From the NCBI GenBank assembly GCA_973895155.1, contig OZ316892.1, positions 18,838,357 to 18,902,356 on the forward strand: a stretch of 64,000 bases of DNA, read 5' to 3'. The notes below the pieces were generated by a model. The model was given only the letters and a program-made list of their open reading frames with translations. It was not told the origin of the DNA and did not search any database. The stretch comes from Marsupella aquatica (Eukaryota; Plantae; Marchantiophyta). Below are positions 4,719-53,803 of the stretch, piece by piece (the stretch's first letter is position 1; each line of letters begins with the position of its first letter). A program made the position numbers and the translations under genes.

Positions 4719-4790
4719 GACTCCTATCATGAATTCATGAAGGGAGTCTCCCTCTCGCACTGACCTTCATGAATTCATGAAGGGAGTCTG
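4719..4790. repeat. Pair of TCATGAATTCATGA palindromes (perfect 20-bp CCTTCATGAATTCATGAAGG at 4764-4783)
   Basis: Direct reading; further copies at 5691-5704 and ~20158-20171. Confidence 0.9.
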
Positions 4791-10620: not shown

Positions 10621-10796
10621 ACTTGTTTCATACATACACACAGAATTCAGAAATATATACATGTCACACATAATGATAACGAATCCGTCATCCTCTTTAC
10701 CAAATGGAAAAATTGGTACAGATATTTTTTGGATCTTTCCAAGGCAATGTCAAAATGTAACACAATTCACATGGTTCTATCTACACTTGCATTCAG

Positions 10797-15809: not shown

Positions 15810-16050
15810 TCACTTGCCCGTGTTCATCATCAGTGTGATATTATCACCTTTGAGGAGAATTCGACCAAGAGGTTTCTGCGTCTTCTTCTTTAATGAGATT
15901 TCCTCGGCATCCTCGAGGACCAAATTCATGTATTCATCAAAACCGATGATGCCTCCCTCTATTCTGAGGTCCTTCTGCTCGAACAACCAAATCTGAATCC
16001 TTGATTTACTTTGCAGAAACCAAAAAATAATAAACTTTGGTGGTCGCCAT
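15810..16050 (-). pseudogene. SmE: Processed pseudogene of small nuclear ribonucleoprotein E (SmE) inside CACTA element A
   Basis: ATG GCG ACC ACC AAA GTT (MATTKV) at 16050, internal frameshifting deletion, then [43 protein letters not shown]...[18 protein letters not shown] with no introns; A-rich tract on the minus strand at ~15406-15433. Confidence 0.92.
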
Positions 16051-19000
16051 GATTGCCGAGTGAAGTGAGGCCCCTCTTTAACAAATTGCTGTCCGCCCGT
16101 CCGCAAGGCCCTTGTCCGTAGCAAGAAATCGCACGGAACAGGGTGATAACAAAACCGGAGAGGTTCTTAATTATTTTCAGCTGCTTGTTCGACACTAATA
16201 AGCGGGAGTCACGATCGGCACAGACAAGTTCAACTGACCTGTAGAAGCAATCATTTCAGAAATTTCAGTAAGTCAAATTTGAAGATCATTGAATGCTGGA
16301 AAAACCCGTGCACAGACAGAGTGTTTAGAAAGCTAAGATTTCTGTGCTGGGCATTGACAAATGCTTATCCCAACCGTAGTAGCGAACGAAAATGAGACAC
16401 AGTTTTAGTAGACCTAAGAGTTATACGCGGGAGCTTGAAAACATGCTGCGACCTAGTTGCAAACCACCTGAACGAGACAGTGTTAATTAATAAATACAGC
16501 TAAGAAGGTTGCTCTTCGGAGCTGTAACAAAACGCTTCAACCTGCTGTAGTTGCCGAACGAATTGACGACTCAAACGAGCGCTCCCAGACACCGAGTAAG
16601 AGAAGGAAAAGGGCAACAAGAGGCAACCTATCAAAGTTGTGATCTATGTTAGAGAAACTCACCAATGACTTGGATGCGCTGCAACGCCTTTGTAGTCGAT
16701 TGATTGATGTTTGCAACTCCGGCAAAGTCTAGTTTTTTGGAAGAAAAGTAGACGGGCTCAGTTGCAGAGTCCGTCCATCTCTCTGAAGTGACTCCCCCCT
16801 CCTTGGCGCAAGGTCCCCTGTTCAGCCAAAGAGATCCGCTTCAATCAGCAGCTTCACTGTCCGCAGAAAGGGGGCTCAGGTGGCTTGCTTAACTTAAACA
16901 TCCTAAATCACCAGCTTTGGAAAGAATTGGCTTTTGGAATTTGTTATTCCAGCCACTATAGATTACATATACAAATTCGCACTCTAGAATTGAAATGTGT
17001 GGAAGTGTAAGACTCTCACCTTAGAATAGCCTCACACAAAAGTTGTTGAGCATGTTGGGGCTCAAAGATGGAACAATGGCTACCGCCCGTTGACGGTGAA
17101 GGGCATTCTCGGTTTGGACCTCCTCTCTCCAACCCCTTCTAACCCGCACCTCCAAAGTTGATTCGGGAGTTGATTAGCAATAACGTCGCTCCTATGCCAA
17201 AGGCACCAAGAACCAAGCCAAAAGAAAGGGTTTAGCAAAGGGAGAGCGATGTAGTGTGCACTGATCAATGACTCAAAGTTGATGTCGAACCCTCCATTGC
17301 GCTAGCTATTGGCGATTGCCACACAGAGAGCAGCTGTATGTAGCAAACTGTAATGCAGATACTCCCGTCAAAGGTCGATGCGTCACACTCAGCTTTAGAG
17401 GAAGGATAAACAATTGAGCAGCATTGCATTGTGCAAAAACGTTGGAGAAGCACATTGCTTCCAGGCCCGAGCTCACCTCCTTCCCCTTTCACCACTTCGC
17501 AGCTCCTCCAAGAGACATTCACTCAAGGGCACATCACGCAGTTGCTTGCCCTCCTCAGAAGCTCAACACCACAGCCACCAAAGTTGTCAGCTCCCACTGC
17601 AACTGAACAGGTCACTAACAAAAGCCCGCTCCCACCGCAGTTGAACAAGTGAGCGACACAAGAGTGTAGGACCTCTGCCAAGCCCAGGGCAGCAGCTCAA
17701 TGAAACTCAATTTGCAACTCGTCTCACTCTCGCTCTTGCTGCAAAGAAAAAAAAGCGCAGGTCAAACTCCTTTGTGGCCTCAGTCCCCACCGCTTTCCCC
17801 AAGCTATGGACAACTACTAGTAGCTTGCTCTCACAGCATGACATCCAGGTCTTTAGCCAACTGCACACTGGAAACCGAGAGAAGTGAGCGCAGTCGCGCA
17901 AGGCCAAAAAAGACCAAAGTTGAGCCAAAGCAAAACTTTACTAATGTATTTACAGTCAAGCATGAGGGCAATCAGGTAAGCAGAAGACCACGCATTCCCG
18001 CAAAGAGTTGTAGGTTCTCGTCACTTCCTCGCCTCTGTATAGAAGGTTGACCGTTGTATCTCGGGTACCCAATGATAGTGGAGATGAATGCAAATAGGCC
18101 TCACCAATCGCCAGTCATCCGCGATAAACCTCCCGACAACCTTGCTCCTATACACCTTAGCACCCGCGTTGTCACCATAGGAAAGACGAATGTAAGATTT
18201 AGGGCCCACCTAAACCCTATAGTGAGATTGCAGTCGACAATGGGTCATATAGCAAAGGTCGAAGCTCCAAGCCCTACGCAATGACATGAAATCCCACCTC
18301 CAAAAGTGCTAAATGTATTGACTGAGTGCGATCAGGTGCAAGAGTCGAGAGCAACTGAGGAAAAGTGCATTATCGGGCGCAAAGTGTTTGGCCTTGGATT
18401 CCCTTGCAGAAACGTGAAGGAAAACCCTGGTGGTAGCCGTCGACACTTTGTGCAATTTTCCTTTACAAAATCCGTTTACCCTAAACATTGAGTCGACTGG
18501 AAGGACTCGTTCATAGGCATTCTGCAAGCACCTAACACATTTAGACGTAAGTTCACAGTTAGGCCCCGCAGGGACGAAACCCAACGTGAGAGGATGGGGA
18601 TGGAAACCCTGGGGAGGCGGCTTGTAGATTGAAAGGTCTCCGCACGCACTACGTGCCTCTTCCTAAGGTCCTGTCAGATAGTCCCGCCGGGCTCGGATAA
18701 AAACTTTTGACCTCGTTCTCCATCTTCAGTTTCAACGATTATATCCCAGCACATGCTTGCTGGCGCCCCCCCCAGGATTAAACGGTAGCTAAGACCAAGG
18801 GTGCATGCATTTTTTTTGGGGGGGGGCTTTTAGTTGGGTATTTTGGGTATAGTCATTGGGTTAGATAAATATCCTAAGTCACCCAGATGGCAAAAAACAA
18901 CACCTACCCTTAAACTCACCCTCCTCAAGCATAAACCCTCTGAAAACCCATTGGACATTTGGAGTCATTGGCAAAAGAGGGTTAAATGGATGAAGAATGG

Positions 19001-19534
19001 ACCGGGGGGGATGGATGCCGACGATCCAATGGTCCCTAAACCCCCATCCCCTTAACATGCAACCCCCGACCCTTGACATCAAACCGAGTGTTCTTCGGCT
19101 GGACAACCCCCTAACCCTAAATCCACACCCCCTTGAGACCGGTACAAATCTACCTTTGTGCATCTCGGCCTTTTATAGATGGAGTTAGTAATCGATCCCT
19201 CCGTAGTCCACCCTCCATGAACCTCACTCCAAAACCTTTTTGGTCACAAATAAGGCCATTTATTGAGTTATGCCCCTTGCTATCACCCTCTTTATAGAAT
19301 TACCCCTCCTCAACATAAGTGAACATTACCCATGATGTGCTAGACTATTCACCGTTCACAAAGTAGCAAGGTTACTTCTCATAGTCTTTTAGTGAACTAT
19401 AAAACACTAAATAGTCTTTTGTAGTCTTCAACAAAACCGGTGCAATGGGTGCGAGTCGTTTCAAGTATGGAAAAAGGACTTAGTGGGCTTAGTCCTATAA
19501 GGTATGGTCTAAATTGCCCCGGTTTCTACTAGTG

Positions 19535-20092
19535 TACAGACCTACCAGAGATATATACGTGGGTCCTTATCGGAATCAAGGAAAGATAGATGCAGAGAAG
19601 GAGAATATGGAAGGAGACTTTTTGGATCTTGAAGTCAACACTTATATTTCTGTTGCTGGAGAAGAATAGAAAAAATTTTGGGTGGCCAAGGTGGAAAGAA
19701 TTGACCAGCGCGACGAGTTCAACATTCCAAAAATGATTTATGTTTTATGGCATGCTGCAAAAACCGGGTCAGATCCTTGGAAAGCCAAGTACTTACCAGA
19801 AGTCTTAAACTACGAAAAGAAGAAAAGTGGTCGTGGGAAAGGAACTTTGAAACCAATATGGTTTCACCAAGAGCTTGATTTATCTTCAATGACTGTTTTT
19901 GCTTACAACTTCATGTTGACAAAATCTGATACATTGTACAAAAAGACAGTAGATCAAATCAAAATCCGATTGACTGAATTTTTGGCAGAAGAGAAAGAGC
20001 AAGAACAAGAGAATGGATCAGCTAGAACCCCACTAGGAGATAAATCTAGAGATATTTCGTTTCAAGAATTGAGGACTTCTGGATCTGAGTAA
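19535..20092 (+). pseudogene. 3' part of the Sola-like/DUF7869 transposase gene begun at 5342
   Basis: Frame continues across the CACTA TSD; FWVAKVE..VLWH motif parallels FWLVRAL..VQWW in the C-terminus of the 36240-37514 transposase. Confidence 0.8.
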
Positions 20093-20759
20093 TGAAAAGT
20101 AGTTATTGTTTGTGACATTACCATTGAAAAACATGGATAAGTTGCCTTTACCACTTATTCATGAATTCATGGTTAAAGTTTCTTGAGAAATTTTTAGTTT
20201 AATAGTTTCTTAGTGGGTTGTGTTTCAATTCAATTAGATGGTGTCATTTCTATCCTCCTTGTCTTCTTTTCACAATAATGTGTATCAGGCTAAGTTGTAG
20301 TAGTTTATTTTCTGGTTTTTAAATGACAATGGCTTTTGGAGGTGATTTAGTTATCGGTTCAAGAGACAGCTCGTGTAATTGTGAGACCATTGTAGATAAT
20401 AGTGTTGTATTTGAGGTCATTTATTGGTGGAATGTATTTTCAGATGAATTTGGTCATTTTTAGGCTGTCAAAACATAGCTAGTTTATGTCATATTTTGTT
20501 CGCTCCATATTTTTGTTCTAAAATAGGTGCTAATTTTGGCACTTTTCTGACTTTTTCGTTGTTTTTCTGATTTTTTGGCTAGAGTTCCTAAAGTATGGGC
20601 TTGTTACTCATCATTTAAGGCTTCTTGTTCACATTGTGTGTACTCTCTTTAAAAACTAATCTTGACATTTTTTCAGTTTTCTCTAAATATTGTATCTTCA
20701 TATATTGTCATATTGTGTTGGCAACATGTTTACGCAACAACACTGCTATTTACAACACA

Positions 20760-35100: not shown

Positions 35101-35299
35101 AGAGGAATAGGTTTAAACCTAGCATTGTGTCAATGGATAATCGGAGTGGTATCTTCCAATTAGTTGGGCCAATTGGAGCAGTATTCTAGCCAAAGAGAGT
35201 GTTACCGGATACTTGTGCCCAACCCTTGATGTTGGGTACTTAAGTCTACAGTACAAGGATTGGGATTGAATCCAAAGATCTTGAGGAGTGTTTATCAAC

Positions 35300-35656: not shown

Positions 35657-36239
35657 CACTATATTCATTAAAACTGAAATTATAAAGGATATAGGGAAAT
35701 TTGGTGATTTAAAAACATAGTTTTAGGCATGAAAATTGTAAATTTGGAAGATGAAAATTCAAGCATCATTAAATGTAAATTTGGGGACAAAAAAATGAAA
35801 TTTTGAGAAAGTAAAATATTAAATTGGATGATATTAAAAAACATTTGGGTGATAAAAGTGTTCATTTGGTTGGAAAATAGATAGAATCTAGTAATAACAT
35901 ATAAGCTTGGATAGCATCTATATTCAAAACATTTAGCTTGAGTAAGATATCTAACTAAGCACCAATACAATGGAATGACTATAGTGTCTAGACAAAGTTA
36001 ACTAGGATGATATCCAACCTACTAGAAGGAATGAAATGGCATCATTTTCTAGAATTAAAATATACTAAGAAAAATAAAATAATAATTATAAGAAAGTCCA
36101 TTCAATAGCTTTGAGAGATCATAGAGTATTAATTTGATTGTCTTGTTCTCTCACTTTAGACCAACGCATGGAAATCAACTCGACCCTCTTAATCACAAGT
36201 CATTTGAGTGGAGACTTGTAACCTACGAGTTCTATCAAT

Positions 36240-39200
36240 CTACTCATCAATTATACCTTCCATGTAAATTTTGAGAGTTTTCAAAACATTCTTAGGAATT
36301 GTCAAACCTCTATCCATAATATTTTGTTCTTTAGCACCTGACTTAAACCCATACATTGCAGAATTTGCAAACTGCCAACTTTGAGTAACATTGTCAAACC
36401 CAGGATCCAGCTCCCAAGTCTTAGTGATTTGAAAGCAACGTTCATATCGAACATCATCCTTTGCATCATGCTTACCATGTTTAGGCCTCCACCATTGTAC
36501 TTGGAACATAGGACCATTCCTAAGAGGAATGCTCTCAACAGATGTTGAAGAAGACCCTTCAATATGTTGCAAATCTGTTGAGGGAACCTCATGGTTTGGA
36601 TCCACACCACCCAAAGCTCGAACCAACCAGAAACGCCCTTTGCCATTTTCCTGTTCCCATTCATCCTCTGGACGTAAAAATACAAAGTGACCTTCTTGAA
36701 TATCTTGTAGAGGAATCCAACGTGCAGGTTCTCGCTCTTGTCGTGCACCAACAAAGGGTGCAGCTTGATCTTCCATCTCTTCCATGTACTCATTTTGAAG
36801 GTCCATCATCTCTGGATTTTGAGAAGGTTCACTTGACGGCTGAGATGTCCCCAAAATCATCTTGTAACCTATGCCATGGTTAGTCTTTGGCCAAAAATCA
36901 GTGGTCAATGGCAAATGTCTTTCCCCCTCCCCTTCTATTGTAAGTTCCTCGGACAGTGCTTGCACAAGATTCTCCCAATATTTGACCAGAGGAAATCTCT
37001 CTTTATATGCTGTAGAGGTCTCATCCTTACAACTTTTCTTCAAGAAATCAATATAGCGATTAAGGAATGGGATGATTTCTCCAGCCTTCTTTGGTACATC
37101 CCCAGATATAGGTTTTGCAAATGGTTGGCCTTCCGATAAAATGAGCGCATTTGTGATGGGATCAGTTCTCCAAATGGACCTCCCCATTGCCGGAAGCCAA
37201 GGTTGCTTGACATGTGCTTTATATTGATACACTGGCACATTATCCCTCATGGAGAAAAGAAATGCCACTGGTTTTGAGTGACCTTCTATCTCTTTCACCT
37301 GGAAAGTTTTCAAATACTCCTTGTAAGATGCAACCTTTTGAATCAATCGTGGTACAGGATGAATGCTTTCACACTCCCAAACCTCAGCCATCAACCCCAA
37401 GAGGGTAGCAACCTCTTTGTATCTGACCTGTTTGGATACTTGAGAAAATAATGCATCCACGTCTTCATGGGTGTGGCCAACCATGAGGAATGACATTTGC
37501 ACAGTTTCAAACACCCCCTGCTAACAAGCTCAGTGCAAAATGCCATCACATATTGATTTTTGTTATCTTTCCCTGAATTGTCCATCTGCAACGTTAGGTG
37601 CCTTGGTACGTACTCGGGGGGGTCACTATATGGAGGGTCATACATCGCGTGCAACGTTTTAGGGTTTGACCCCCCTAACTTTAAAGTGAAAAATATTTTT
37701 TTGCAAAGCCCTTTCTTTCTTAAAATTTTGTCATTTTTTATTAAAAAACCCCTAAAAACTTTATAGAAAGTATTTTTTGCAATTAAATAGGCCTATGTGT
37801 TCTTTAAAGTCGACCAATCAATAAAACATGCCCTATGTGTTCTTCCACCAAACTTTGGAAGTCTTCCGCCACACCCATTTAAATGGGCCTATACTTCGTC
37901 GCACGTGATGTGTCACTTCCGTGGAAGTGACCCCCCCGAGGGTACGTAAGGGGTTGAAAGAGCCCCTAGTAGTCTCAGGATCATCCTTAGAACCAACATC
38001 CACTGTGCTTGACTTTTTAGTCTCCTGACCATCTTCAATGCCTTGAAATCGAACAATTGAAACATTTTTGGGTTCCAAGTAACCGGCCAGAAATGCTTCA
38101 AAGTCTAGAAGGGACTGAAATATTGGCCTAGTTGCATTCCAATTCAATCCCTCAAGAAGGTCTCCAGTTTTGTCTCCTATGTAATCCTCCAAATCTCGGA
38201 GGCATTTGGCCAAAGATGTCACGGTAAAGTCTGCATCTCCAGGCCAAAGTCCAGTCAAACTGAAATGTGCATACACTCCAGGATCTCTTCCATGGGTTAA
38301 CATCCCAGTAAGAGCAATAGGCAAAGGCTGACCACTACCAGAGAGGGATTTTGGAGTGGGGACCAACCTGAGGATCCAAGTCTTGGCTTGATCCATCTTA
38401 TCGTGAATAATGCAAAGATAGTTTTGAGGATCCTTCTTTGCAAGAACCCTATGAGCATAGTAAACATATCTTCTTGACATTTGTTCACGAAGATGTCGCG
38501 CTCTTTTCTCTTCAATCTCTGCACGCTCTTTTTTTCTCTTCTCCCGCATCAATTGATCTTTGAACTCAGTGCAAAATGTGCCCTTGGCAAATGCACTTCC
38601 CTTGTGAAAGTCAAAATTATCAAATGAGTTTTTCCAGATGTTGTACATAGTAACTTCAGTAACCTTAGCAAACCCATCTAATTCCATCTTGGTAAACACC
38701 TCTTGGAAAATCTCCTTCTTAGTAAAACAAGATGGGAGCCGATATTCAATAGTGTCAGTGCCGTTGGACCCACCATAGGGAAGATGTGGCATTGGTTCCC
38801 CATTTTGGATTAAAATGGACTCCAACAAGGCGCGAGCGTGCAAAGTGCTTGATCCTGTCTTCCGTTGTCCCTGATTTCCATGGAAACCAATTGTGCAACC
38901 AGCTTTGTATTGATTTTTGTAGTCATAGTACTTTGTTGTACTGAACCCATGCATTTTAATAAATGCATCTTTACAAACCACACGTCCCTTTAGAACAAAA
39001 AATCCCTTTTTCTCTTGACTTGCTCCTCTCTACACCCAAAGAGACTAAAGATGTGACTTGTTTTGTTGTCACTTGACATTCCATGGTATTCCCTCCTCAT
39101 TGCCTCTAAGTCCTCCCTGGGCATGTTCAAGCAACACTTCAGCTTGCAACAACCTTCTCTTTGGATGGAATCAATGGACTCCTCGTTAATTTTCAAAAGT

Positions 39201-40298
39201 GCCCTCGACTCCAAATGCCTTTTCTTCCTCTTCCTCAAGATCAACTTTTGTCCTCCTAATGAAATTGTATGGTCTTTTTGTAGGTTTACCATCACCATCC
39301 GAATCCGGATCGCCCTTAGTTCGACCCGACTCCATCCACTTCTCTGAAACTTCCTCAAGGATATCCCCAAGAAACCTTTGAGACGAAATCAATAGAAGGG
39401 ATTTGATTTCCCACCTCACCAAGCCAGGGGTACCAACACGGATATTTGGAAATAATCCGGGTTCATTGATATTCACAACAGCAACACCAACATGATCTGC
39501 ACCAAGAAGTTCATCGTCAACGGCACCTATTTCAAATGGGACCGTGATAACACTTGTTGCAACCTTTCGACAATGAGAAGCGTCATACAAATCAACCTCC
39601 TCCGCCATCCAGTTGGAACGTAGTGTAAAATCTTTTAATGGAAGATCATTGAAAATATTTGAACTACCAAACACGCCAAAATCTCGTAGAGTGCCCTTTC
39701 TAGAAACATGCGCAACATCCCAGATAACCCAGGTATGCAAGGCCTCTTCTATTGTATCAGCTCCAGGGTGCGAGTATGACAATTTTTGATTTCCCTTAAC
39801 AATATTAGATATTCTTATACTGATGCGACCAACCCCGAGTGTTTCAGTATGACAAATATCCATCGGATTTGTCTTGAAAACGACTCCATTTGCAACCAAC
39901 TGATCAAAAATGAACATCTGAACTTCATCTCCTTCCTTGAACACGTCCTCTTCAACCCTTGCATCAATTTTGGATTTATCATTTCCAACATCTCTAGCCA
40001 AAGAGAAATCATCGACATTGATTCTTCGGCGCTGAGTTGATGACCTCAAGTATGCCAATGCACAATCCCAAATCACGCAGGAGTCAATTGCCTCAGCCAA
40101 TGTAGAAAATTTGGGCGAAGGAAATGGAAGTTGACGCGATCCATCAAAACACTTTTCGATCAATACCCCAATTCGATTGTCCCCTAGACAAATGTTCTGT
40201 ATAGTATCCTGGGGGTCAACCTTTTGAACTATCCCAATTGCCGTTTCAAATCCATCGATCACCAATGACACTTCATCCCCTCGTGTAAAATTGATCAT
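36240..40298 (-). pseudogene. Sola-like/DUF7869-type DDE transposase with N-terminal repeated Tnp1/DUF8039-like domains (frameshifts, MITE insertion)
   Basis: CIIHDKMDQAKT, LTLQMDNSGKDNKN, FLMVGHTHEDVDALFS; CCKLKC Cys motif; three N-terminal repeats ending VIWD/VIWD/VRWE. Confidence 0.88.
37613..37940 (-). mobile_element. MITE copy 3 (328 bp, inverted), 8-bp TSD GGTACGTA, inserted in the transposase gene
   Basis: GGTACGTA at 37605-37612 and 37941-37948; reverse complement of copies 1 and 2. Confidence 0.97.
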
Positions 40299-40414
40299 GA
40301 TAGCGGACTATCTGTATTCAAATAAAGTTACAAATTGTTAAGTTCCCCATGTTACAATCATGTTTCAAAATCTGGACTCTCCTCCAAAAAATATTGTAAA
40401 ATCACTCAAAACCC

Positions 40415-40826
40415 TAAATACATTCAAGTCGGGTCGGAATTATTTCGACCCTCCTCCAACATTATGTCTTGAAATGATTGAATTGACTAAACATTTACAA
40501 GTCGAGTCGGAATTATTTCAACCCTCCTCCAACAATATGTCTTGAAATGATTGAATTGACTAAACATTTACAAGTTGGGTCAGAATTATTTTGACCCTCC
40601 TCCAACAATATGTCTTAAAATGATTGAATTGACTAAACATTTACAAGTCGGGTCGGAATTATTTCGACCCTCCTCCAACAATATGTCTTAAAATGATTGA
40701 ATTGACTAAACATTTACAAGTTGGGTCGGAATTATTTTGACCCTCCTCCAACAATATGTCTTAAAATGATTTAATTGACTAAACATTGATAAGTTGGGTC
40801 GGAATTATTTCGACCCTACTCCAACT
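40415..40826. repeat. Tandem array, 73-bp unit, each with hairpin GGGTCGGAATTATTTCGACCC (6 hairpins)
   Basis: Hairpin starts at 40431, 40504, 40577, 40650, 40723, 40796; a flipped partial copy at ~40920-40944. Confidence 0.95.
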
Positions 40827-42182
40827 ATTAAGTTGAAATTATGTCAAAACTATTTGTGAAACTATCTTGCTTATGCTTTTATATACCAGTTTAAAATGCT
40901 AGTTAAGATGACATAGTCAGGTCGGCACGAAATAATTCCGACCCACTTCTAGAAACTATGTTAGTAATCACATAAAGGGGTACAGTAAGTTCTACACATG
41001 CTAGACTGTGGATAAAGGTCTAGAATGAGTAAAATATATGATCTAGAACCTAATGTGTAAATCTTAATCTAGGTTTGGCTTAAAGGTATTGAATTAAATG
41101 TAGTTGAGCTAGTACTTCTAAGATAAATAAATAAAATCACTAACCTGCTCCGCAATATATCTTTGTCCACCCTTGTACAAGCTAAATGGGTACCTTGGAT
41201 GCCAGCATTGTAACTCTTAGCACCATAGTGCTCACCAGTGCCCTTACTAAACCTTGCATTCAACCATGCGGACCTAAACAAGGCACTCGGACAGAGGAGA
41301 GTCAGTGATCGTACCAATCACTGTCTAAATGACAATGAACCAAAAAATGGATTCTGGGAGGTCTATACTCAGTTTGAGAGGCAAAAAGCCCACACATTAC
41401 CCAGCACACGAGTGGACACCAACAGATCGGGCACGGGTGGATGAGGCACGCACCCAGCACACAAGTAGACATCGGATAGGGTGTCAGCCAATCACTCACG
41501 AGTGATAGGTGAGTTGCGAGCACACACCGCTGACAGCTCGGAAGTTTAAAATTGGTAGGTGAGTCGCGAGTGGTCGTGAGTGGTCACACCATCGGTGACT
41601 CACGATCACATGCACTGAGGAGGGTCTCCATCATTGGCGCGCATTGATGCCTCCGTACCCTCTCGGATCCTTGCCTCCTCGGACTCCTCGCTCGCAGGGG
41701 GTATAGGAAGGTAGGCCTTGCGCTTGAGGCCTCATTTCCTTGCCTCCCTCTTGCCTCCTCTCTCGTCTCCTCACTCCTTGCCTCCCTCTTGCCTCGCTCT
41801 AGGGCTTTTGTTTTTGCCTCGCTCTTGGGATTTGTTTTCCGCCTCGCTCTAAGGCTTTTATTTCCGCCTTGCTCCCTTCCCTTTTGGGTCGCTCCCTCGA
41901 TCATTGTTTGCCTGTTAGTGCCCTCTTGCAGCCTATGGCATTCTCCATTGCTGCCACGTGTCATCTTAAATCTCACTCGCCCCTTACAATGTCTACTTCC
42001 TCCAGTTCTGAAGCTTCCACCACCTCCGCCAGTTCTCAAGAGTCATTGAACTTCAATTATAACTCTCTGTATGAATATGACCCTGAAGACCCGGATGTCC
42101 AAAATTTGGTTAACAATGCGTTGGAGGCGTCAAAGAAAGCCCAGTTAACTTTTCCACGTAAGGCACCACCTGCTTCAACATC

Positions 42183-42853
42183 TTGCCTCGCCCTAAGGGC
42201 GAGGCAACTTTACTTTAATTTGGATTTCAAACTTCTTATTAGGAAAATTTCTATATTCCTTTGCAGTCGCCTCGCCCCAAGGTCGAGGCGACGTCTACTT
42301 CATTCTAGATTTCTTGTTGCTCCGAAGGCGTATTGGACCTTGTATCTTATATTAATAAAGGATCTTTAGCTATATTCTATTTTTTGCCTCGCTCTTGGGG
42401 CGAGGCGATGTCGTCTGCATTCCTCAAATGTAGTCTGCATTCCCAGAAGTTGCCTCGCCCTTGGGGCGAGGCGATGTTATCTGCATTCCTAAATGTTGTC
42501 TGCATTCCCAGAAGTTGCCTCGCCCCAAGGGCGAGGCGATGTCCTCTACATTCCTAAATGTTGTCTGCTTTCCCAGAAGTTGCCTCGCCCTTGGGGCGAA
42601 GCGATGTCCTCTGCATTCCTAAATGTTGTCTGCTTTCCAGAAGTTGCCTCGCCCTTGGGGCGAGGCGATGTTGTCTGCATTCCTAAATGTTGTTTGCTTT
42701 CCTAGACGTTGCCTCGCCCCAAGGGCGAGGCGATGTCGTCTGCATTCCTAAATAATGTTTGATTGCTTAGATGAGGTGGCAGGGCTAATTGCACTAGGAG
42801 CAAAGAAGATTCTGCAATCTTCTATTTGTCGCCTCGCCCCAAGGGCGAGGCAC
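42183..42853. repeat. Nine GCCTCGCCC-NNN-GGGCGAGGC palindromes in intron 1 (central six at ~65-bp period)
   Basis: Copies at ~42183, 42266, 42384, 42450, 42515, 42580, 42644, 42709, 42829. Confidence 0.95.
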
Positions 42854-44508
42854 CTTGAAAGTTTTCCACATGTCAATGTTAAAAATATGATGCTGACCAT
42901 TTTGTTTTCAATGTTTCTTACCAGGAAAAAATCTTGAGAAGCCGAAGTTAAATATTATGGACGAGGATATCAAGGACTTTGTTTTCCCTGACCAAGATAC
43001 TCCAGGATTTAGATGGGCACTAGAAGTTGGGGTGTCGGCGGAAGGCAGTCTCTTGATTTGTTTCAAGGGCCTCACAAGTCAATTGAATGACCGCAAGACA
43101 ATTGTTACTCTAGGTCCAGTCGTCCTTGTGAACACGGACAACAACCGCAATGCAACGATTATTGTTGAGTCCAATGAGAAATCTCAGTGGATGAGACTTC
43201 TAGTGCCAATAAATCTCTACTCGACTTTACTGAATGTTGAGTGGATGGCTTGATTGGAGATAAGCGTAGCTGATATGGGATTCTTCCCAGATGGAGTAAC
43301 AATTGATCAGATGTTTGAGAAGACGCATTCTCAAATAAGTGGAGTTGACCTAGTGTTTGGATTTCTCTACGTAAAGAAGCACATACATGACAATGCGGAC
43401 AGTGTGGACCCTCCGTCTACTTGGATAGTTCAAAGGATGATTGATAAGGCACATTTTTCATACGAGCAAGCAATCGACAAGAGTTTCATTTTTTGTCCAG
43501 AGTTTCAAGAGGCCGCGTGCCGGACGTGGATTTCAGAGATGAAGAAAAAAGAAGCAAAGCATAAGGCAAAGGAGAGAAAGAAGACAGTGGAAAGAAGTGC
43601 GCAATCAAAGACAGAGAAGAAACGAAAGCTTCAAGAGCCGGTTGTTCAACAAGAGAAACAATCTGGGAGTTCACGCCGTAAGAAGATGGCTAAAAAAAAT
43701 GAAGATGATGAGGGCCCCCAAAAAAAGCAGACAAAGAAGGCAAAGGTTGCGAAATCAAAACCAATGTCAGGGTCGACTTCAAACTTTGTCTTGCATCCAG
43801 AGGATGATATGTGTCCGACAGAAGGACCCAAAGAAGATGATGTGCTCAAAGGCCAAGAGGTTTTGCGTAATATTGAGCAGTATTATCCTTTTGGCATCCG
43901 CGAAGTTTTTGATATTCCTGTAAAAAGTATTAATCCGCCATCGGCCGTTTTTGTATATCGAATGTTCAATCTTTCGCATGCAATGCAGATATCAAAGTCT
44001 ATGATGAAAAACCCTGGACAGGAACCACAAGTTGCTGATTTGATTCCGTATCGCGAGAGCACTAAACAGTTGCTTCATTATGACAACACACCTCAGGATA
44101 GGAAAGAGTTTTTGATTGGTGTGAAGAAGCATGAGATCCAATTCCTTGCCATCAGTGGCCAGCATTCTGCAAGAGCTGCCCAATGGATCCAAGGGTGGGC
44201 CGAGACTGACAGATCTTGCCAACAAACTAAAGTATAGGAAAGCAAGGATCCTATCTGACCTCACTCCGAAGACAATTTTGGTTGAGCATTCAAGTTTATC
44301 GAATGCTGTCAATGATACTATGCAATTTAAGTCTTGTTTTTTAGAGACTATTGTTCATGCACGAAGGCAGTTTGAGGAGTGCGGGAAACCGCCGCGTCCA
44401 GGGATTGGGACCAATCAAAATACAGACAGGAAAAACTATCAGGTACATGTTGGAGCAACGCAAACTATTCTTGATCCGCTTTGTTTAAAGATTGTCAATG
44501 GTAAAGGT

Positions 44509-44693
44509 TTGCCTCGCCCCAAGGGCGAGGCTGCCTTTTCTTGTTTTCCTTGGTTAGAAGATTAAAGCAAATGTTTGCCTCGCCCTCAGGGCAAGGCAAC
44601 CTAGACTAGTCTCTCTAAGAATAATTCCCTAGTTCCATTTCAGTCAATTGCGGTTAGATGTAGAGGTTCACCACGCCCTTGGGGCGAGGCGGC
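44509..44693. repeat. Three more copies of the same palindrome in intron 2
   Basis: TTGCCTCGCCCCAAGGGCGAGGC (~44509), TTGCCTCGCCCTCAGGGCAAGGCAA (~44575), CGCCCTTGGGGCGAGGC (~44674). Confidence 0.9.
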
Positions 44694-47395
44694 TTAGCCT
44701 GTTTCAAACATAGGTATAAATTTTCTAACATACGCATTGTACCCTGAAACTAATATCAAGTCCATTGGATATGCAGGATTGGTTTGCCCTGGCAAAGGTT
44801 ACAATGGGGAAGTCAAGCCTAAAGAGCATTTATTGGTTACTTTTTGCCGAAGATGAGCTCTTTGAATTATGGCGGAACGTGTGTGCAAAATGGTTGAGTG
44901 GGAAGCTCCAAGATGGGGCTGGTGGGTATGGAGGGCCAAGACCCCCAAAATTGATCACTCCCGGTACCTTTCGATGCTTTGAAGGAGAGATTAGTAGCAA
45001 ACAGATAATTGAGATCTTGAAGGACGTTGAAGAGGAGCGTGTCTTGCTGAAGAAGGATATCACCAACAAATCAGAGCTTGTCGCAATGGGAGACTTGGCC
45101 CTTACAATCAAGATAATGTCCAAATTGAGAACAGTCATTATTGGCTATTTCGTGGAAAAGTATCGTGAGAAGTTTCCTGTTGGCACATCTTGGGAGTCTC
45201 TGGTGATATTGTTGCCTTCCTTGAAATCTGAGCTTGAGATGACAAAATTGAGGAGAGCAGCGGGTGAGGTTTACCTCAACAATTCATTGAAGAAGAATGT
45301 GGTCAAGGAGAGTTTCCCACAAAGTCTGATGGTCAGACTAGATGGGTTGTATTGTAAAGAATTTGGTGGGATTGGTCATTCTCGCACGGAGCCTTTCTTG
45401 ACATTTTTTAGTGAGAATTTGATGAAGACGACCGTGCCGGAAATGCTACAAGAGCCTTCGCCTTTGTGTCCTCTTGCCATTGTTGACTTCAGTAGGCTCC
45501 GACAACATGTTTGGACCGATGCTGAAATTATTGCATTACTGCAATACATTGTGGATCTTCCAAGAAATCCAACAATTGTTGTTGTCATGACTGTGCATCC
45601 GGGGCCACTTGCTGCAAACATTTTGAGTGCCCTTAGGAAATTGCAACATGAAAAGGGAATGGACATCCACGTCGACTACGGGAGCTATCGACGGAGTGAT
45701 ACACCAGTTCCAGAGGGCTTACTTTTCAGTTGTGGTATGGAGGAGATAATCTTTGCAGGAATCACCACTAAGGAGAAATTTGATTGGAAGCAAGTGTTCA
45801 GGCCTGGATTTAATTGCCAATTTTCTTACAATTTGGCGATCGACCCTGATTTCCAAGTGGAAGACAAGACGGAGAAGCGAGATAAGAATAAGAGTAAGAC
45901 AAGTAAGGAGACAGAGACTGAGTCAACTTCGGCATTTCACATTGGAGACTTCTTACGAAAGGCTCCCATGTTTGAGATGGTGGGAAGTAGAGGTGGCTTT
46001 GTGAATATTCACGCTAAGCCAAAATGTATGCTGCAGAGTATTATTGAATTTTTTTCGGCTGAAGGGGAGACTATACTTGACTTTTTCTCGGGAGGACAGG
46101 TTATGAAGGTGTCATTGTTGTGTTTCAGAGAATGTTTTGCGTATTCAGACACTGAGGATGAATATGATTTCACTCAGGCATATGGAAGGGTTCTTTGCGA
46201 GAAAGTTCCTTCCATAATGAGTGACCGGATGGGCGGTTCCAAATTTGGTAGGGCCCGCGATGGGGTTTCCGAGCATGTTGGTGCCAAAGAAGGCGTAGAC
46301 CAGGGCGAAGATGATATTGAGGAAGGAGAATTGGGTCACGACACAGACGACATGGTCACCCAAAATTTGGATGAACGTGGAACACAAGTGGTAGGTATTC
46401 CCTACTTTGGTGTGGGGTTGGCTGATGTTGTGGGTTGACCTGAGGGCGACCCACCAAGAAATCCCTTTGCCGATGTAGAGAATTGGATGCACCAATCGGA
46501 CCCAGATCTTACATCGTCCACATCGGACGCACATTGGAAGGCAACCGCAGATGGTCTAGGCAATATTGACGCAGTAGAATTGGGAGAAATGTCAGACATT
46601 GCGCTTGCAAAGGAGGATGATCGTCAAGTACCTGAGACCGCTGCAAATGAAGAAGAGAAGGCAGGTGCTTCAAATCCTCCCCTGTCTCCTCTATATTGCT
46701 CATCAGAGACTAAATTGGTTTTTACAAGTGCTTCTACATGAAGCCCCGTAGTATTATCATTTTCACAAAATTCTGGATCCAAGATCGGCAGGACTGGGTA
46801 TATGAAAACAGTCCGTCCTGCAACTCATTTTATATGGAGAAATGGACCAAAGGTTGGAATGATAGAATCACTAGACGATGCTCCAAAGATAATGGCAAAA
46901 TCAGATTACAAAAAACTGAACTTGAGACTGAGCCCAGTTTTTGCACCCCCATCCTTTGAAGAGCAACTTCCCAGTGGTATCAATTCCGAGATACAGAGTG
47001 TTCTAGGTGATCAAACAATAGATGAATTTGGGCATTTTAGCATTGGAAATTATTAGCCCTTTCTTTGGTTCTTGGTATTTTAATGACAATCTAAGCTTTA
47101 TCTTTGTAATAATATACTTTTTTACAGACCAAAGTTCCGTCGTAGAATCTCCTTCCTCAAAGGATTTTGTCGGCATTCCCTTGGAAAGCGTTGCTGTGGA
47201 GGAAGGGTTTGACCCAGGTATACTTTGGATCTAAAAAATGGAAATTGAATGTAATTAATGTTTTTCTAGGAGGGTCGCCCCAGGGTCGTTCCTCTCTACT
47301 TTCAAATGCTATAACAAATTTTGTTTGATTTCAAATTTTGAGAGTTTTCCTCCGTAGTAATTGTTTAAACTTTGAGTCGCATTGACTAAGGGCTT

Positions 47396-48451
47396 ATGTT
47401 AATGTTTCCAGAATTCACTCCAATACTACACTCTCCGATCCGGCGAAAGCTCTTGGTTCTTGACCTTAACAAGATTTGTTGGGATTGCATTAAGACCAGA
47501 AGCTCAGGACCATGGCGAAATCAGACAAGTTTACGTGGTGTGCACTGGGGGAGACGTGGAGGGTTTAATTTCATGTATGTGGAGCGCCCATACCTCCACA
47601 AATTTCTATATGCAGCTTTCATGGTTTTTGACGTCGCAATTTGGACCTGTGCAAGGAGGCCAAAAACAATGGACTTAATGGAGTTGATTTTCACTGAGGA
47701 GGAGCGACAAAAGTTCAAGTTTGTCTTTACTCAAGAAGATACCTTTGATAGTTGCATCCAAAGGCCAGATATAACAGATGGGAAGGCCAATTTACTTCTG
47801 AAGAATTTGCAAACCATTTGGGACCGTTTTCCAGAAAAATATGATGCTTCTAATACAGTTCTTATTGATGATTCTCCATTGAAGGCATTTTTGAATTATG
47901 ACGTGAATGGATTGTTTCCAAATCCATTTACTCACACAGCTTCAAATGACACTTTTTTGCCCGAGATATTATGGCCGTATCTTTGCAAATTGAGAAAGGC
48001 TTACTGCGTTCAACATTATATCACTGTCAACAATCCAAAGTGGTCTGTTTTCAATTTATTAACAAGCAAGGAGGATCATGCTGCCATCTATGCTCTTTTG
48101 GAACAGAAGTGGGGAGATTGTCGTTGTATCCATAGGGAGTTTGGAACCATCTTGGATGTGACTCCTGAAGAGATTCCTTGGGACGGAAAGAATGAGGTGC
48201 AGCATTACCCACCACTGGAGACGTGGACCACGGATGAGATCAAAGAAACTACAAACGTAATACTTGGAGACAACTATTCTGGTCCTCATACACAAAATAG
48301 AAGGCATTTTATTTGGAAAGTTCTCAGAACTAGGGATCTCACCAATAAGTTTAAGAACCACCATGCGAGAGATACTTGCAACCGTGACATCCCCCATGAT
48401 AAATCAGGAAGCAGACTTTCTTGTTCAAATGAGTTTTGTCTTGATCATTAG
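47396..48451 (+). CDS. FCP1/SCP/NIF-family HAD phosphatase-like ORF (possibly the last exon of the upstream gene)
   Basis: RKLLVLDLNK, ERPYLHKFL..FDVAIWT, KNLQTIW..YDASNTVLIDDSPLK; motif I reads DLN rather than DLD; intact 351-aa frame. Confidence 0.85.
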   Translation: MLMFPEFTPILHSPIRRKLLVLDLNKICWDCIKTRSSGPWRNQTSLRGVHWGRRGGFNFMYVERPYLHKFLYAAFMVFDVAIWTCARRPKTMDLMELIFTEEERQKFKFVFTQEDTFDSCIQRPDITDGKANLLLKNLQTIWDRFPEKYDASNTVLIDDSPLKAFLNYDVNGLFPNPFTHTASNDTFLPEILWPYLCKLRKAYCVQHYITVNNPKWSVFNLLTSKEDHAAIYALLEQKWGDCRCIHREFGTILDVTPEEIPWDGKNEVQHYPPLETWTTDEIKETTNVILGDNYSGPHTQNRRHFIWKVLRTRDLTNKFKNHHARDTCNRDIPHDKSGSRLSCSNEFCLDH

Positions 48452-48920
48452 GAGATAGGGTTGCTCTAGTGCCTACCTTGAATTGTACATTCATATTATG
48501 TCTTGAAAGGATATGTTTTGAACATGTAGGATAAAGTAAATAATTAGGATATATGCTTAGTGTGAGGCTCTCTCACTGGACTGGACAATTTAATAATTAT
48601 ATAGTGGGTCAATCTCATTTTGACCCTTGATTTATGACCATCTATATTTTTTAATTTATAGATGGTCTGAGTGGTATTGGCCTCTGATTTTTGGACTAAA
48701 TTAAATTTACTCTAATTTTTAAATTAATTAGAATATATGATTTAAGTTATTATTAAACATTTGGGTGAAAAAAAACAAAATTTTGGGCGTTCAAAAGTGT
48801 ATATTTGGGCTGAAAAAAATTAGCTTTTGGGAATGCTTTAATAGAAATTTGGCCTTAAAAAAAATAACTTTAGGGTTCATCTTATGGACTTTTAAAAGTA
48901 CAGTTTTAATGAATATAGTG

Positions 48921-49330
48921 AATATGATCCTGCCATCCATGGTGGAGAATATATTGTTGATACCAACTCCTTGATTTGTGAAATTTATCCATCCTTGGAG
49001 AATATGATGACAAGTTCCTAAGCAAGAACAATATTGACGCCAACAAACAAGGAGGCACTAAAAATCAATAGTTCAATATTGGAAGGGCTCGCAAGAGATG
49101 CCCACACCTTCTATAGTATAGATCGGTCGGATCAATTGGAAGGATGTGACTTTTACCCTATTGAGTTCTTGAATACGCTAACACCTAGCAGTTTTCCTCC
49201 GCACAAGCTGGTACTTAAGGTTGGATGCCTTGTTATTTTTCTACGTAATATTGATTTCATTACAGAATTATGTAACGGGACAGAAGTCATAGTACGTACA
49301 ATCAATAGTAGTGTCATAGAGAACAAGAAG
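48921..49330 (+). pseudogene. Helitron PIF1-like helicase fragment, 3' of insertion
   Basis: LICEIYP..ILTPTN..IN..IL..YSID..YPIEFLNTLTPSSFPPHKLVLKVGCLVIFLRNID..LCNGT. Confidence 0.9.
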
Positions 49331-49642
49331 CCTTAAAGGATGGGTCTAAGGCCTTAATTCCTTTTTCCAAAAAATTATGATTTTTAGAAATGTAGTCCTA
49401 AAACAAGCAATAAAATCAGCATATTTGTTTGACATTCACCCTTTGCATTTTAAACTAGACTTTACGTCAATGTTTGAGACAAAACATATTCAAAACTTGA
49501 TTTTCATAGAATTGACCTGTCAAAAACAATCATTTATATCATAGTCTAGGCTCCAAGGCCATTGACATCTCAAAACTTGCAAGTAAAGTCTACTTCTATG
49601 CAACTACAACAACCCTAAAATGTCTTACAGAAATATCCTCAG

Positions 49643-51250
49643 CTAATCATCTCTTGTTTCCTCAACACTTCCAACAACTCCTGAAGAGTCAAGTCCTATG
49701 ATTTCCTCCTCTCCAACTCCTATCTCTGGTATTGGTAGAATGGTCTCTTGAACATCAACATCTAAATCCACCATGCCTTTGCCATCATCTTCCTCAATGT
49801 TGTCCACCAGGTTTAGAATTCTCCCTTTCAAGACACTGCTCTGGCGCTCATCAATTTCTACAGTAACACAATGTCTTCCTTGTGCCAAAGAGGAAGACAA
49901 TCCTGTGCCTGACCCTGAACAAATATCTAGCACCCAGTCTCCAACCTGGCTAAAGTGGGTAACTTCCCAATCCAATAACACTCTTGGCTTTTGGTAAAAG
50001 TTCACCATCTTATTGTCCCCGTTGTGTTTCAACTTATTGGTCATAGCTGGACACACAACCACATTATTTTGAGACTCATTAGTCTCAAAATTGAAATGCT
50101 CCAAAGACCGTTTCCCATCCTGACTATGAAAGCCAATGGTGAAACACTCAAAATTGTTGTTAAGCCTTGCACCTCCTGCATTCTTAACATTGTCTTTCAC
50201 CCTGCAAAAACCAAAACTTGCATTATGGATTTGTTTCAAAATCAAACATCATGAAATCATGAACACCAAAAAAACATATTCACCTGTTGAAATGTTTCTT
50301 ACCAAATACAATTCTGGAAACCACCATTACACTCAGCTTTCAAGACAGTCTTGACAACATCATACTGGTCAATACTATGATGAATGATAATTCGCCAAAG
50401 ATTTGCCTTGGTGACAACCTTGAAGGACTGAACCATCTTGGTCACCTCTTCCACACCCCATCCAACATTGTCTTCGTGAAGACAAGCAGTCATTCCAAAC
50501 CCATAAGGAATATCTGCCAAAGCCAATGTGTAAGCTCGTAATGGGATTACCTCGTGCAACCGCTGAGCATCGTGTGTAAAGATATCATAGTACACATCCC
50601 CAAACTGTGGATGCTCAAAAGCATTAGGATGAAGTTCACTTCCCTGGGTCTCTTGGCAAGATTTCTTCATTGCCAACTAGTTCTGTGCTTGTGCAATATG
50701 TGCATTGAACTTATCTGGGAAGGACTTCAACTCTTTGCTTTCTTCATTCTCTCCCTTCTTTTTCCCGGAGATGCTGTCTTTCTGAGAAAACAAAATTGGG
50801 TACATGAGATTCCTACATACTTAAGAATAAAACTGTAAAACAAATGCTCAGTCAATCTCAAATAAACTTACCCAAGTCTGGAAGACAGGAACAAAATTCT
50901 TCAGCACATTATCAGTGCAGTGTTCTAGGTACTTGGTTTTGCAATTCTTCCAACTCTCTTCGTGAAGACAGGTAAGAAATGCTTTTTGAACTTGCATTTG
51001 GAATTTGTGTCGTTGAAATTCCTGCCCCATCTCTTGAAGAGATAATTCCTTTGCCAAAACCCTTTGTAGCATTGGACAGATCTTGTCCGGATCTTTCAAT
51101 GCTTGCATGTGTCTCCACTCAGTCAACTTCATATCCTCACATAGCATTTTAGCATCTCCAGACTTGGACATCTTTTTCTTGGTCTTATCTCCTTTCTGTC
51201 CTTTTATCTCACAATTCTCCCATCTGTCAAAGATCTGTCGTATGAAAGAC
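49643..51250 (-). pseudogene. Beta-class N4-cytosine/N6-adenine DNA methyltransferase gene (intron-containing, 5' part cut off by CACTA insertion)
   Basis: LALADIPYG (motif IV), CIW|VKDN across in-frame intron 50202-50302, FYQKPRVLL (X), WVLDICSGSGT (I), GRHCVTVEIDERQ (II); another intron ~50782-50871; one stop upstream of the catalytic domain. Confidence 0.88.
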
Positions 51251-53803
51251 CACTAGTAGAAACCGGGGCAATTTAGACCAAACCTTATAGGACTAAGGCC
51301 ACTAAGTCCTTTTTTACAACTTCAAATGACTCGGAACCATTGCACCGGTTCACATGAACACTACAAAAGACTGTGAGTGCTTTTTGGTTTAGGATAAGAC
51401 TATGAAAAGTTTCCACGTACCCTACTTTGTGAAAGGGTGAACACTCTCGCACATGAGTGTTGTAGGGTTTAGTTGTGGGCCTCAATTTGATAATGGGCAT
51501 ATGGGGGGTTTACGTCCGCTATATTGAACACGTACAAACTCACTACATGTCTAAATGCCCTAATGTCTCATATACTCCATAGTGGGTTTAGGGGGGGTTT
51601 ACGTCTCAAGGGTGGGCCGGTTATATGTGAAGGGTGTGGGTGGTCACCACTAAAGGAGGTTTAGTAGGGTTTATATGTCAAGGGTGGGCCGGTTAGGTCT
51701 CAAGGGGGTGGGGGTCACCAACATCCTGTTCTATTCAAGTTTGCCAAGCCAAGAATCGGGTGCACGCATACCCAAGATTTTTGGGCTAGCATGATTTTCA
51801 ATTCACAGTCGGCTCTACTTCACCAACATCCGGCTTTATTGAACTTTTCCAAGCCAAGAAAAATTTGCTGAAATACCCAAGATGGCCATGCAGTAACACT
51901 TCAATGTAGTGGTGTCTCACTTTGGGTGACACTCAACGGCTCACTCAAACGGTAAGGTTGAGTGGCTCCCCTTAATGACTTAAGTCCCCTAATCTAGTAA
52001 AGAGGCACTAAACTGGTCTTTGGGAGTGACTTTGGAGTGTTTGGGCCATCGTCATTGGACGCAAAACGTGAGGGGTCCAAGGTTCGGGGTTTTACGTTGG
52101 ATTTAGGTTTTGGCTGTAGGGCTAAGAAGGTTGTGGCTGCTGCAACCTTCGATCGGAGCTAGTTGTGAGGGCTTCATTCTTCGGGGATTTTTGAGAGAAG
52201 GGCCTCTCATTGTTGCACAATTCTCCTGACCCGCACTGCCGATGTGTTGTGGCTGCACCCAGAGCGACTTGGTGTTGCCATTTGTTTCAAGAAGGTTGTG
52301 CTACCATCGCGAGCTGTTGAGGAGAGGGCCAGTTGCTTGCAAAAGGATTTGTAGATTGTGTCGGAGGTCTAGATTTCTCCATTTCTACCAAGAAATGACG
52401 TGCAACAAGGCAATGTGGAGCGCAACGGCAATGTCCAGGGTAGTCCTGAGTGCTTAGGTCATTCCATTCTAACAGGAGAATGGTCGTGCGGCAGGGCAAT
52501 GTGCAGCGCAACGACAACAATGTCGAGGGCACTCCTTTAGTGCTTAGGTTTTCAGTGAGTTGCAGTTCGGGAGGAGCTATGACCTGGGGACTGAGGTGCT
52601 GAGGGTTTAGCTGAGGGGAGGAGCTGTGATCTGGGAAGGTGTTGCGGTGCCAAGGTCTATTGTAAGGTGAGGTGATTGTTGCGGAAGGTGGACATTGGAG
52701 TTGTGAAGGCGCTGTGGAAGGCGACCACTGCGGAAGGTGGACTACAGTGGGTCCTTAAAGCTTGCGGAGGCATTGAAAGGAGGCTGAGCAAGGAGGCAAT
52801 CGTTGCTGCTGCGGAAGGTGGACATTGGAGTTGTGAAGGAGGTCGTGGAGCTTAAAGAGCAGTTGCAAAATCGGGAGCCGGTTGTTTGTTAGGAGGAAGC
52901 AGTTGACAGTGCTGCCATTGGTTATCAGTGTCATCAGCCAAAGGTTAGTCCCGGCCATGCAGCTGAAAGTGCGCTTCACTAGTAGAAACTGGGGGGTATT
53001 TAGACCCCATTAAACGACTATTCAGTACCGTATAGGACTTGGAAACGACTGGGAAGGACTCCAGTCCTTTATAGGACTGCGAGTCGTATGTTTTGTTACT
53101 ATAATCAACTGAGTCCTTTATAGAACTGGTTTATAAGTCGTTTAATAGACTGGATTTTCAGTCTATTTTAGTCTTTGTGTGGGTAGCTTTGGTGAGTCGT
53201 TTTCAGTCTTTTATGGGCTGAGATGGTGAATCGTTGGGAACGACTAAAAAGGTTATGGAGGGTAGTCTTTAAATATACTTTGTGGGGTATGTATAAGTCT
53301 TTCATGTCAACTGGATATGAGTGATGAAGACCCCACTATACTACTTGGAATGAACCCACTCTTGTGCACAAATAACATATTGCATTCATGTTTTATTGTG
53401 TACTTGAATGAACTCACTCTATAAGTTCACCATTCATCATGTTAACATTAGAATACATAGTTTCAGAAAGCCATCTTCTATACCATGTACACTAATATGA
53501 ATTCACAGATTCAAACTTCATAGACTACAAAGAAGGTCACAAAGTATTCCTCTATACCATACACACTAATACTGAAATGATACAAAACAGATTCAAGTAT
53601 CATAGACAATCACCATAGAGCCATAGTTTGACATCAATCAATTGTTTCATACATACAGAATTCAGAAATATCAATGTCACACACAACGGCTCCTTCATCC
53701 TCTTTACCAAATGGAAAAATTGGTACAGATATTTCTTGGATCTTTCCAAGGCAATGTCAAAATATGACACAATTCACATGATTCTATCTACACTTGCATT
53801 CAG

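Follow-up and report, generated by a model that had tools for sequence, protein, structure and literature searches.

A decayed liverwort gene from a transposon-borne family that joins a predicted ParB-like domain to a beta-class amino-methyltransferase

Introduction

How does a gene for a bacterial-type amino-methyltransferase, interrupted by spliceosomal introns, come to lie among the transposons of a liverwort, and which base, if any, would its product modify? The question is raised by positions 49643–51250 of a 64,000-nucleotide stretch of Marsupella aquatica DNA (GenBank assembly GCA_973895155.1, contig OZ316892.1), referred to here as the window. An initial annotation had read this segment as a gene with a single intron, situated in a transposon, cut by a CACTA element and possibly linked to eukaryotic writers of N4-methylcytosine (4mC). 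Our analysis leads to a different emphasis. The gene is genuine but decayed, and it belongs to a transposon-borne ParB-methylase family. Within the literature searched this family is new for land plants; the kind itself has already been published from brown and red algae. The pseudogene state, the nature of the missing half (a likely ParB-like domain) and the description of such proteins in algae had all gone unnoticed.

Results

A genuine gene with two introns and two lesions

The motifs of a beta-class enzyme follow one another on the minus strand, with DIPY (motif IV) at 50514–50503, YQKP at 49996–49985, LDICSGSGT at 49930–49904 and EID at 49858–49850; the W-V-K motif spans a splice junction, and the terminal stop codon occupies 49645–49643 (Table 1). 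Spliced by coordinates, the gene retains 472 codons, with stops at codons 161 and 472 and with DIPY, WVK, YQKP, LDICSGSGT and EID at codons 216, 286, 355, 377 and 401, respectively. Its last exon scores 30.5 bits against Pfam N6_N4_Mtase (cut-off 26.7), and PF01555 family searches gave 30.5 and 32.7 bits, both above that cut-off. The last and the middle exon are 63% and 61% identical, respectively, to protein P0003 of Calypogeia fissa, whose alignment runs through both exon joints without introns, and both introns occupy identical positions in three metagenome loci (L001, L002 and L003). Based on the motifs, the P0003 alignment and the shared introns, the motifs are real, the introns are two in number and a nonsense codon is present. 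Thus, splicing in frame is upheld, but by two GT–AG introns instead of the one proposed initially, and an in-frame TAG at 50679–50677, which is codon 161 of 472 and lies 55 codons upstream of DIPY, had been overlooked. At this site the contigs of four of five runs (X1–X4) encode Trp at full depth, and X5 has no cover at the base.

Table 1. Features of the window that bear on the methyltransferase gene, its carrier and the sister element
Feature	Position	Strand	Remarks
Related element, transposase side	4727..20630	+	Palindromes, DUF7869 pieces, terminal repeat 20609-20630
Sister element, 13.3 kb	35657..48920	.	30-bp inverted ends; inserted in same Helitron helicase
Sister DUF7869 transposase	36240-39388	-	Part of 35657..48920
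Sister-element palindrome GCCTCGCCC-N3-GGGCGAGGC	42185..44690	.	12 copies, 0 expected by chance
Sister gene, predicted ParB-like + DFSR-type methyltransferase-like	about 42926-46741	+	Divergent from transposase
NIF/FCP1-like phosphatase ORF, sister cargo	47390-48451	+	Uninterrupted; Pfam E 2.8e-16
Helitron Pif1 helicase fragment, insertion target	48921..49320	+	Pfam Pif1_2B_dom E 4.7e-14
Terminal inverted repeat of the gene's element, end downstream of methyltransferase	49321..49342	+	GAACAAGAAGCC-type end
Last exon of window gene	49643..50201	-	Motifs X (YQKP), I (LDICSGSGT) and II (EID), acidic tail, stop
Intron 2 of window gene	50202..50302	-	GT-AG, 101 nt, phase 2, Trp codon split
Palindrome TCATG-N4-CATGA in intron 2	50249..50262	.	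Putative ParB-type site
Middle exon of window gene	50303..50781	-	End of linker and start of methyltransferase domain, motif IV DIPY
Premature stop, private to window copy	50677..50679	-	Trp in P0003, L001-L003 and contigs of runs X1-X4
Intron 1 of window gene	50782..50871	-	GT-AG, 90 nt, phase 0
3' remainder of long exon	50872..51250	-	Helical region after predicted ParB-like domain
CACTA end cutting window gene	51251..51410	+	Preceded by GAC; inverted match to 59591-59750 and 19413-19534

The remainder of the long exon is 62% identical to L001 and matches the family profile with E 4e-52, the stretch itself being part of that alignment. It ends at the border 51250/51251, where the trinucleotide GAC precedes the CACTA end, in agreement with the claim that the gene is cut there. 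In both of two runs, loose contig ends behind 51252 stay in frame, and their residues past this point agree with the orthologues. The remainder of the gene had been expected beyond the far end of the cutting CACTA element; neither that end nor the continuation of the gene lies within the 64-kb window. The window gene is hence a genuine gene but a dead copy, with two lesions, the TAG nonsense codon and the CACTA insertion that took away its 5' half. A comparison of the window copy with two runs, in which 40 of 106 differences were listed and 10 non-coding ones left out, contains 14 coding differences where the window copy departs from both runs, 11 of them non-synonymous and 3 synonymous, a pattern as in neutral decay; the 16 differences found only or mainly in the other organism comprise 6 non-synonymous and 10 synonymous ones. 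Contigs revealed several variant copies of the gene within each run. Contig depth in X1, about 170–230 over the gene versus about 13–22 at single-variant joints, hints at several copies and is not usable as a copy number.

The gene is cargo of a DNA transposon

The terminal repeat 300 bp past the stop of the window gene matches the reverse complement of 20609–20630, the end of an element with a DUF7869 transposase in the same window, in 21 of 22 bases (0.02 expected by chance). On its other side lies a Helitron helicase fragment that continues the fragment at about 35100–35656, and in both of two runs helicase contigs leave the window sequence behind 49321 and continue as helicase. The window gene is transposon cargo inside a DNA transposon of which one end is seen, as the initial annotation had suggested from its surroundings. 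A candidate Helitron 3' hairpin at 49322–49350 was dropped because the terminal repeat match at 49321 was found. Both DUF7869-family insertions went into one and the same decayed Helitron Pif1 helicase gene, at points about 400 bp from each other.

The transposase side is represented in the window by the related element, whose DUF7869 pieces (from 5342, start inferred; 7262–8011; 19535–20092) are split by the CACTA element 8195–19534. In L002 an ORF stands head to head with the methyltransferase gene, and 15 of the 21 residues at its start agree with those at window position 5342. When the window is combined with L002, the L002 link being these 21 residues, the carrier would run from one end through the methyltransferase gene, the palindromes and a divergent DUF7869 transposase to the other end. 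A transposase on the strand opposite to the methylase gene is seen in the sister element; for the window family it is suggested by the same 21-residue match. In none of the sequences were transposase core, methyltransferase and both ends found together. The motif pattern of the transposase presumably recalls Sola- or EnSpm-type transposases, and by Pfam its class is DUF7869 only. A literature search did not find the term DUF7869, and the available text of PMC4455052 was no aid in classing the carrier.

Other insertions crowd the window. A 330-bp MITE is present in three near-identical copies (3473–3806, 13354–13681 and 37613–37940), each with an 8-bp target duplication, and an older relative lies at 20761–20897. 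The CACTA elements 8195–19534 and 52977–59750 have the 3-bp duplications TAC and CTT, respectively. The latter lies inside the CACTA element by which the window gene is cut; it contains a PHD-finger ORF (53804–54457) as well as one of the arms of an inverted duplication of 1.9 kb (54333–56216 and 62125–64000). A Skp1 POZ fragment was found at 22178–22552.

A sister element carries a remote paralogue

The sister element follows the same plan as the element of the window gene, with its own palindrome. It looks complete; its inverted ends begin with CACTA, yet its transposase is of the DUF7869 type. The 8-bp sequence AATATGAT is found at either flank, displaced by 5 bases at the left one, and the duplication is ambiguous. 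Its transposase and methylase-like gene bear frameshifts or stops and a MITE. A 73-bp tandem array lies upstream of the transposase at 40315–40898. The phosphatase ORF among its cargo belongs to the NIF/FCP1-like family, which could act on the tail phosphates of RNA polymerase II.

A helical resemblance between the window gene and the region from 44777 had been remarked upon, together with the suggestion that a paralogue resides on a second element. BLASTP with the helical exon gave no real match to the sister gene (E 0.59), while profile comparison of the window gene with 44777–46438 gave 98.9–99.2% probability, at 15% identity in one search. The resemblance is thus real at the level of profiles and remote in sequence, and the sister gene, over 43254–46741, is best regarded as a true but remote paralogue on a second element, with DFSR instead of DIPY. 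In region 44777–46438 this DFSR stands at motif IV and motif I reads DFFSGG; its clade is conserved in nine homologues, two of them from Calypogeia; motif IV reads DFSR or DFGR in five of the six relatives listed and DLLR in one. Since a DFSR-type motif takes the place of DIPY, the sister protein is likely not a normal methylase, and its clade may possibly be a pseudo-enzyme.

Palindromes as candidate binding sites

Exact matches to TCATG-N4-CATGA number four in the window versus 0.15 expected, one in intron 2 of the gene and three (4727, 4767 and 5691) before or in the related transposase; a copy with one mismatch lies at 20159 in the related element. The palindrome is present in intron 2 of all four copies of the gene (window, L001, L002 and L003), in introns that are otherwise divergent, and it occurs twice upstream of the gene in L001 and in L002. 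Only exact and near-element palindromes were counted because, with one mismatch allowed, the window contains 11 versus 3.7 expected, six of them outside these elements. ParB binds parS, and TCATG-N4-CATGA is a likely candidate for a ParB-type binding site. The palindrome of the sister element, GCCTCGCCC-N3-GGGCGAGGC, is placed in a similar manner, with nine copies upstream of the sister ParB-like gene and three in its intron.

A likely ParB-like domain and a family under selection

Cut off in the window copy, the ParB-like part was read from the N-terminal part of L001. The first 12 Foldseek rows for the model of this part (pLDDT 68.6) are all ParB, Noc or Spo0J; the best E value is a weak 0.01, with no match at E <= 0.001. 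A PDB profile search with the N-terminal part listed no ParB chain, and an Atlas search gave a ParB_N cluster at 0.92, with the family on 35% of its members. From these models and searches the N-terminal domain is likely to be ParB-like. In language-model features, L001:1566–2258 (P0174 residues 20–250) resembles fungal DUF3723 as well as sponge and mollusc clusters at 0.95–0.96, hinting at a wide eukaryotic spread.

At E <= 0.001 a search with the last exon returned 263 clusters (50% identity), and the species-named ones among 30 looked up were from Chara braunii (4), Riccia sorocarpa (3), Ginkgo biloba (1) and Adiantum nelumboides (1), a range that would point to a likely bryophyte-grade host for the window. 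The relatives that show the family come from Calypogeia, Riccia, Chara, Adiantum and Ginkgo and from the three metagenome loci, with many paralogues in Chara and Riccia. A GG(N/G)H motif marks the N-terminal region of the long members, which also have the helical linker and the methyltransferase in common, so that the full protein would consist of a likely ParB-like domain, the linker and a beta-class amino-methyltransferase, in this order. The exons seen in L001 are free of stops and L002 has one stop in the ParB-like part; both sequences end within the last exon, and therefore no wholly intact gene was seen among the copies examined. Over three exons dN/dS is 0.06 in each pairing of L001, L002 and L003, and it is 0.11 between the window copy and L003; two pairs of the set are saturated. 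As estimated from these sequences, values of about 0.06 show that the relatives are under purifying selection.

Searches for a donor gave no clear candidate. Among viral contigs, 20 pattern matches contained no relative, and the 241 records obtained by tblastn with P0014 in search of a phage donor were all weak (<60% identity; best listed E about 1e-5). A tree of the methyltransferase domain, which kept 49 of 160 rows at 70% cover, dropped all nine DFSR rows and was built without DN4MT1 and N4CMT, has weakly supported deep nodes and does not fix origin or donor.

Fold and predicted target base

In Foldseek the predicted structure of P0003 (pLDDT 85.6) has beta-class DNA amino-methyltransferases as its top matches (CcrM, E 6e-14), with N4CMT at rank 10 (E 8e-11), PvuII at 15 and METTL3 first at 40. 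These ranks thus rule out an RNA methyltransferase reading and do not separate N4-cytosine (N4C) from N6-adenine (N6A) enzymes. Against the PDB, the family profile A1 scores 64 bits with CcrM, 62 with M1.HpyAVI, 57 with M.BceJIV, 54 with M.RsrI and 53 with M.MboIIA; N4CMT reaches 30.6, PvuII 20.5 and the best RNA (rRNA) methylase 24 bits. MT-A70 or other RNA methyltransferases did not come out as the closest matches in the Foldseek and PDB profile rankings. When the last exon alone was compared with PDB sequences, the result was chiefly antibody noise. The proposed bacterial-type, beta-class assignment is borne out by motif order, Pfam score and the fold match of the Calypogeia orthologue, and the placement with RNA enzymes that might have overturned it was not observed.

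Motif IV is covered by 42 of the 150 proteins in the alignment. It starts with Asp in 41, the remaining protein having SLNY, and SPPY occurs in none of the 42. Compared with the canonical (D/N/S)PP(Y/F), the window motif DIPY is unusual, and among relatives DPPY is found in 7/42 and D-[ILFVA]-PY in 24/42; drift extends to DLPR (three proteins), DIPH, DIPS and DVNY. The catalytic Tyr was lost repeatedly, in a DLPR subclade and in the Ginkgo protein with DIPH (P0042, P0122, P0124 and P0036). As the second position of motif IV acts via its backbone carbonyl (PMC4738411), Ile for Pro need not kill catalysis. Profile scores and motif IV favour N6-adenine as the predicted target, in keeping with the earlier remark that DIPY is nearer to the N6-adenine type. 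By contrast, the suggested link to the 4mC writers DN4MT1 and N4CMT is not supported by these sequence comparisons, given the missing SPPY and the scores of N4CMT and PvuII versus the 53–64 bits of the N6-adenine enzymes.

Discussion

Fuller relatives of the window gene, with a likely ParB-type domain and a beta-class methyltransferase, probably, if by no means certainly, bind palindromes of their element and put N6-methyladenine on it. The ParB-like part would bind TCATG-N4-CATGA as ParB does parS, and the methyltransferase would then methylate adenines of the element itself at N6, with the CATG half-sites as a possible location. Most likely the protein would thereby shield the element family from host silencing or time its transposase. 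Gene structure, the two lesions, terminal repeat, insertion site, palindromes, purifying selection and the beta-class fold enter this explanation as observations. Held against it are the non-canonical, drifting motif IV, the DFSR of a whole sister clade, the fold of the P0003 model, which does not part N6A from N4C enzymes, the weak ParB match, the shortness of the L002 link and the incomplete state of L001 and L002.

In a reading that we consider unlikely, the methyltransferase domain of this accessory protein is catalytically idle and, as a module for DNA binding or dimerisation, would help the ParB-like domain to coat the element. Most members have another residue in place of Pro2 in motif IV, and some in place of Tyr4; the sister clade, conserved over 10 proteins, keeps DF (five of six listed) but no longer has PY, and its motif I reads FFSGG; and purifying selection does not prove catalysis. 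However, the lineage of the window gene keeps Asp, Pro3, Tyr4, YQKP, D-x-x-x-G-x-G (100 proteins) and the motif II acid. That the family instead writes 4mC, as kin to or source of host enzymes such as Marchantia DN4MT1, appears distinctly improbable. Beta class and fold are in common, the family is present in liverworts, and the N4C type originated several times among N6A enzymes (PMC4738411), but SPPY is absent from all 42 proteins (one SLNY), the scores of N4CMT and PvuII are only about one half or one third as high as those of the N6A enzymes, and DN4MT1, as described in the available text, groups with prokaryotic N4C enzymes, has TSPPY and is without extra domains. Least of all do we expect a host gene, passively captured or merely among transposons, or an RNA methyltransferase. 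Introns, the nest of insertions that makes up the window and one JGI label, RsmD, could be cited in its favour; the terminal repeat beyond the stop, the insertion in a Helitron gene, the variant copies in each run, the many Chara and Riccia paralogues and the low rank of RNA methylases speak against it, and this reading is already largely refuted.

The bind-and-methylate explanation finds its closest parallels in algae. Ectocarpus Sola1-1 encodes a 1104-aa protein with ParB-like and N4C/N6A methylase domains, opposite to the transposase, and similar proteins are cited in green and red algal elements (PMC12477816). Going by the available description of Sola1-1_Ec32, the likeness lies in this domain pair as an accessory gene on a large DNA transposon; the carrier there is a Sola1 element of a brown alga, whereas a streptophyte family with DUF7869, a conserved palindrome and a DFSR sister clade is found here. 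In red algal Plavaka (EnSpm) elements, PAG2 combines a methylase with SET and PAG3 combines ParB with a 2OG oxygenase (bioRxiv 10.1101/2025.02.11.637652). The accessible part of that report likewise describes a PF01555 methylase and a ParB-like domain as cargo, with tandem inverted repeats beside the ParB gene, but on two genes, whereas both domains reside in one protein here. Inverted-repeat sites beside a ParB-like gene are seen in both the window family and the sister element.

More distant systems share single traits. The bacterial beta-class N6-adenine enzymes CcrM, M1.HpyAVI, M.BceJIV, M.RsrI and M.MboIIA agree in fold and motif order; they differ in their 12–22% identity, in having DPPY as opposed to D-[ILFVA]-PY, and in being without ParB-like domain or introns. 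DN4MT1 (TSPPY, no extra domain) and rotifer N4CMT (SPPY and a chromodomain; 10.1101/2021.02.12.428880, PMC8885841) are, according to the available text, likewise beta-class amino-methyltransferases of bacterial origin within a eukaryote, but they are host genes with SPPY and proven 4mC, whereas the window family has Asp, a predicted ParB-like domain and a transposon. DAM of DIRS/LTR retrotransposons is a prokaryote-type adenine methylase on a eukaryotic transposon, of another enzyme group (NPP motif) and on retroelements, with no mention of ParB in the accessible portion of the report (10.64898/2026.05.21.726589). According to the same portion, 6mA was not produced by the DAM enzymes in E. coli, which calls for caution with transposon-borne methylases in general. 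The eukaryotic amino-methylase clades in the available text of PMC4738411 include no permuted ParB fusion of streptophytes. A search of titles and abstract starts found no land-plant report of a ParB-methylase family, and the Ectocarpus and Bostrychia supplements, Iyer 2011 and Repbase may hold plant examples; no paper in the literature searched contained three of the terms DLPY, DIPY, DPPY and methyltransferase.

It is tempting to speculate that land plants and Chara harbor widespread DNA transposons that write 6mA on themselves through a ParB-clamp methylase at TCATG-N4-CATGA, with the DFSR clade as a catalytically rewired partner or mimic, a tentative proposal that we regard as possible though doubtful. 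The algal papers put forward the idea that these proteins bind to and modify the transposon that encodes them, and their available text gives neither site nor activity (PMC12477816; 10.1101/2025.02.11.637652). The present family adds a candidate site conserved inside a diverged intron, evidence of selection and cultivable members (Riccia, Chara, Adiantum and Ginkgo), and with these the bind-and-modify proposal becomes directly testable. If the speculation on self-written 6mA holds, an element-encoded epigenetic mark would exist in lineages whose genomic 6mA is believed to have been lost.
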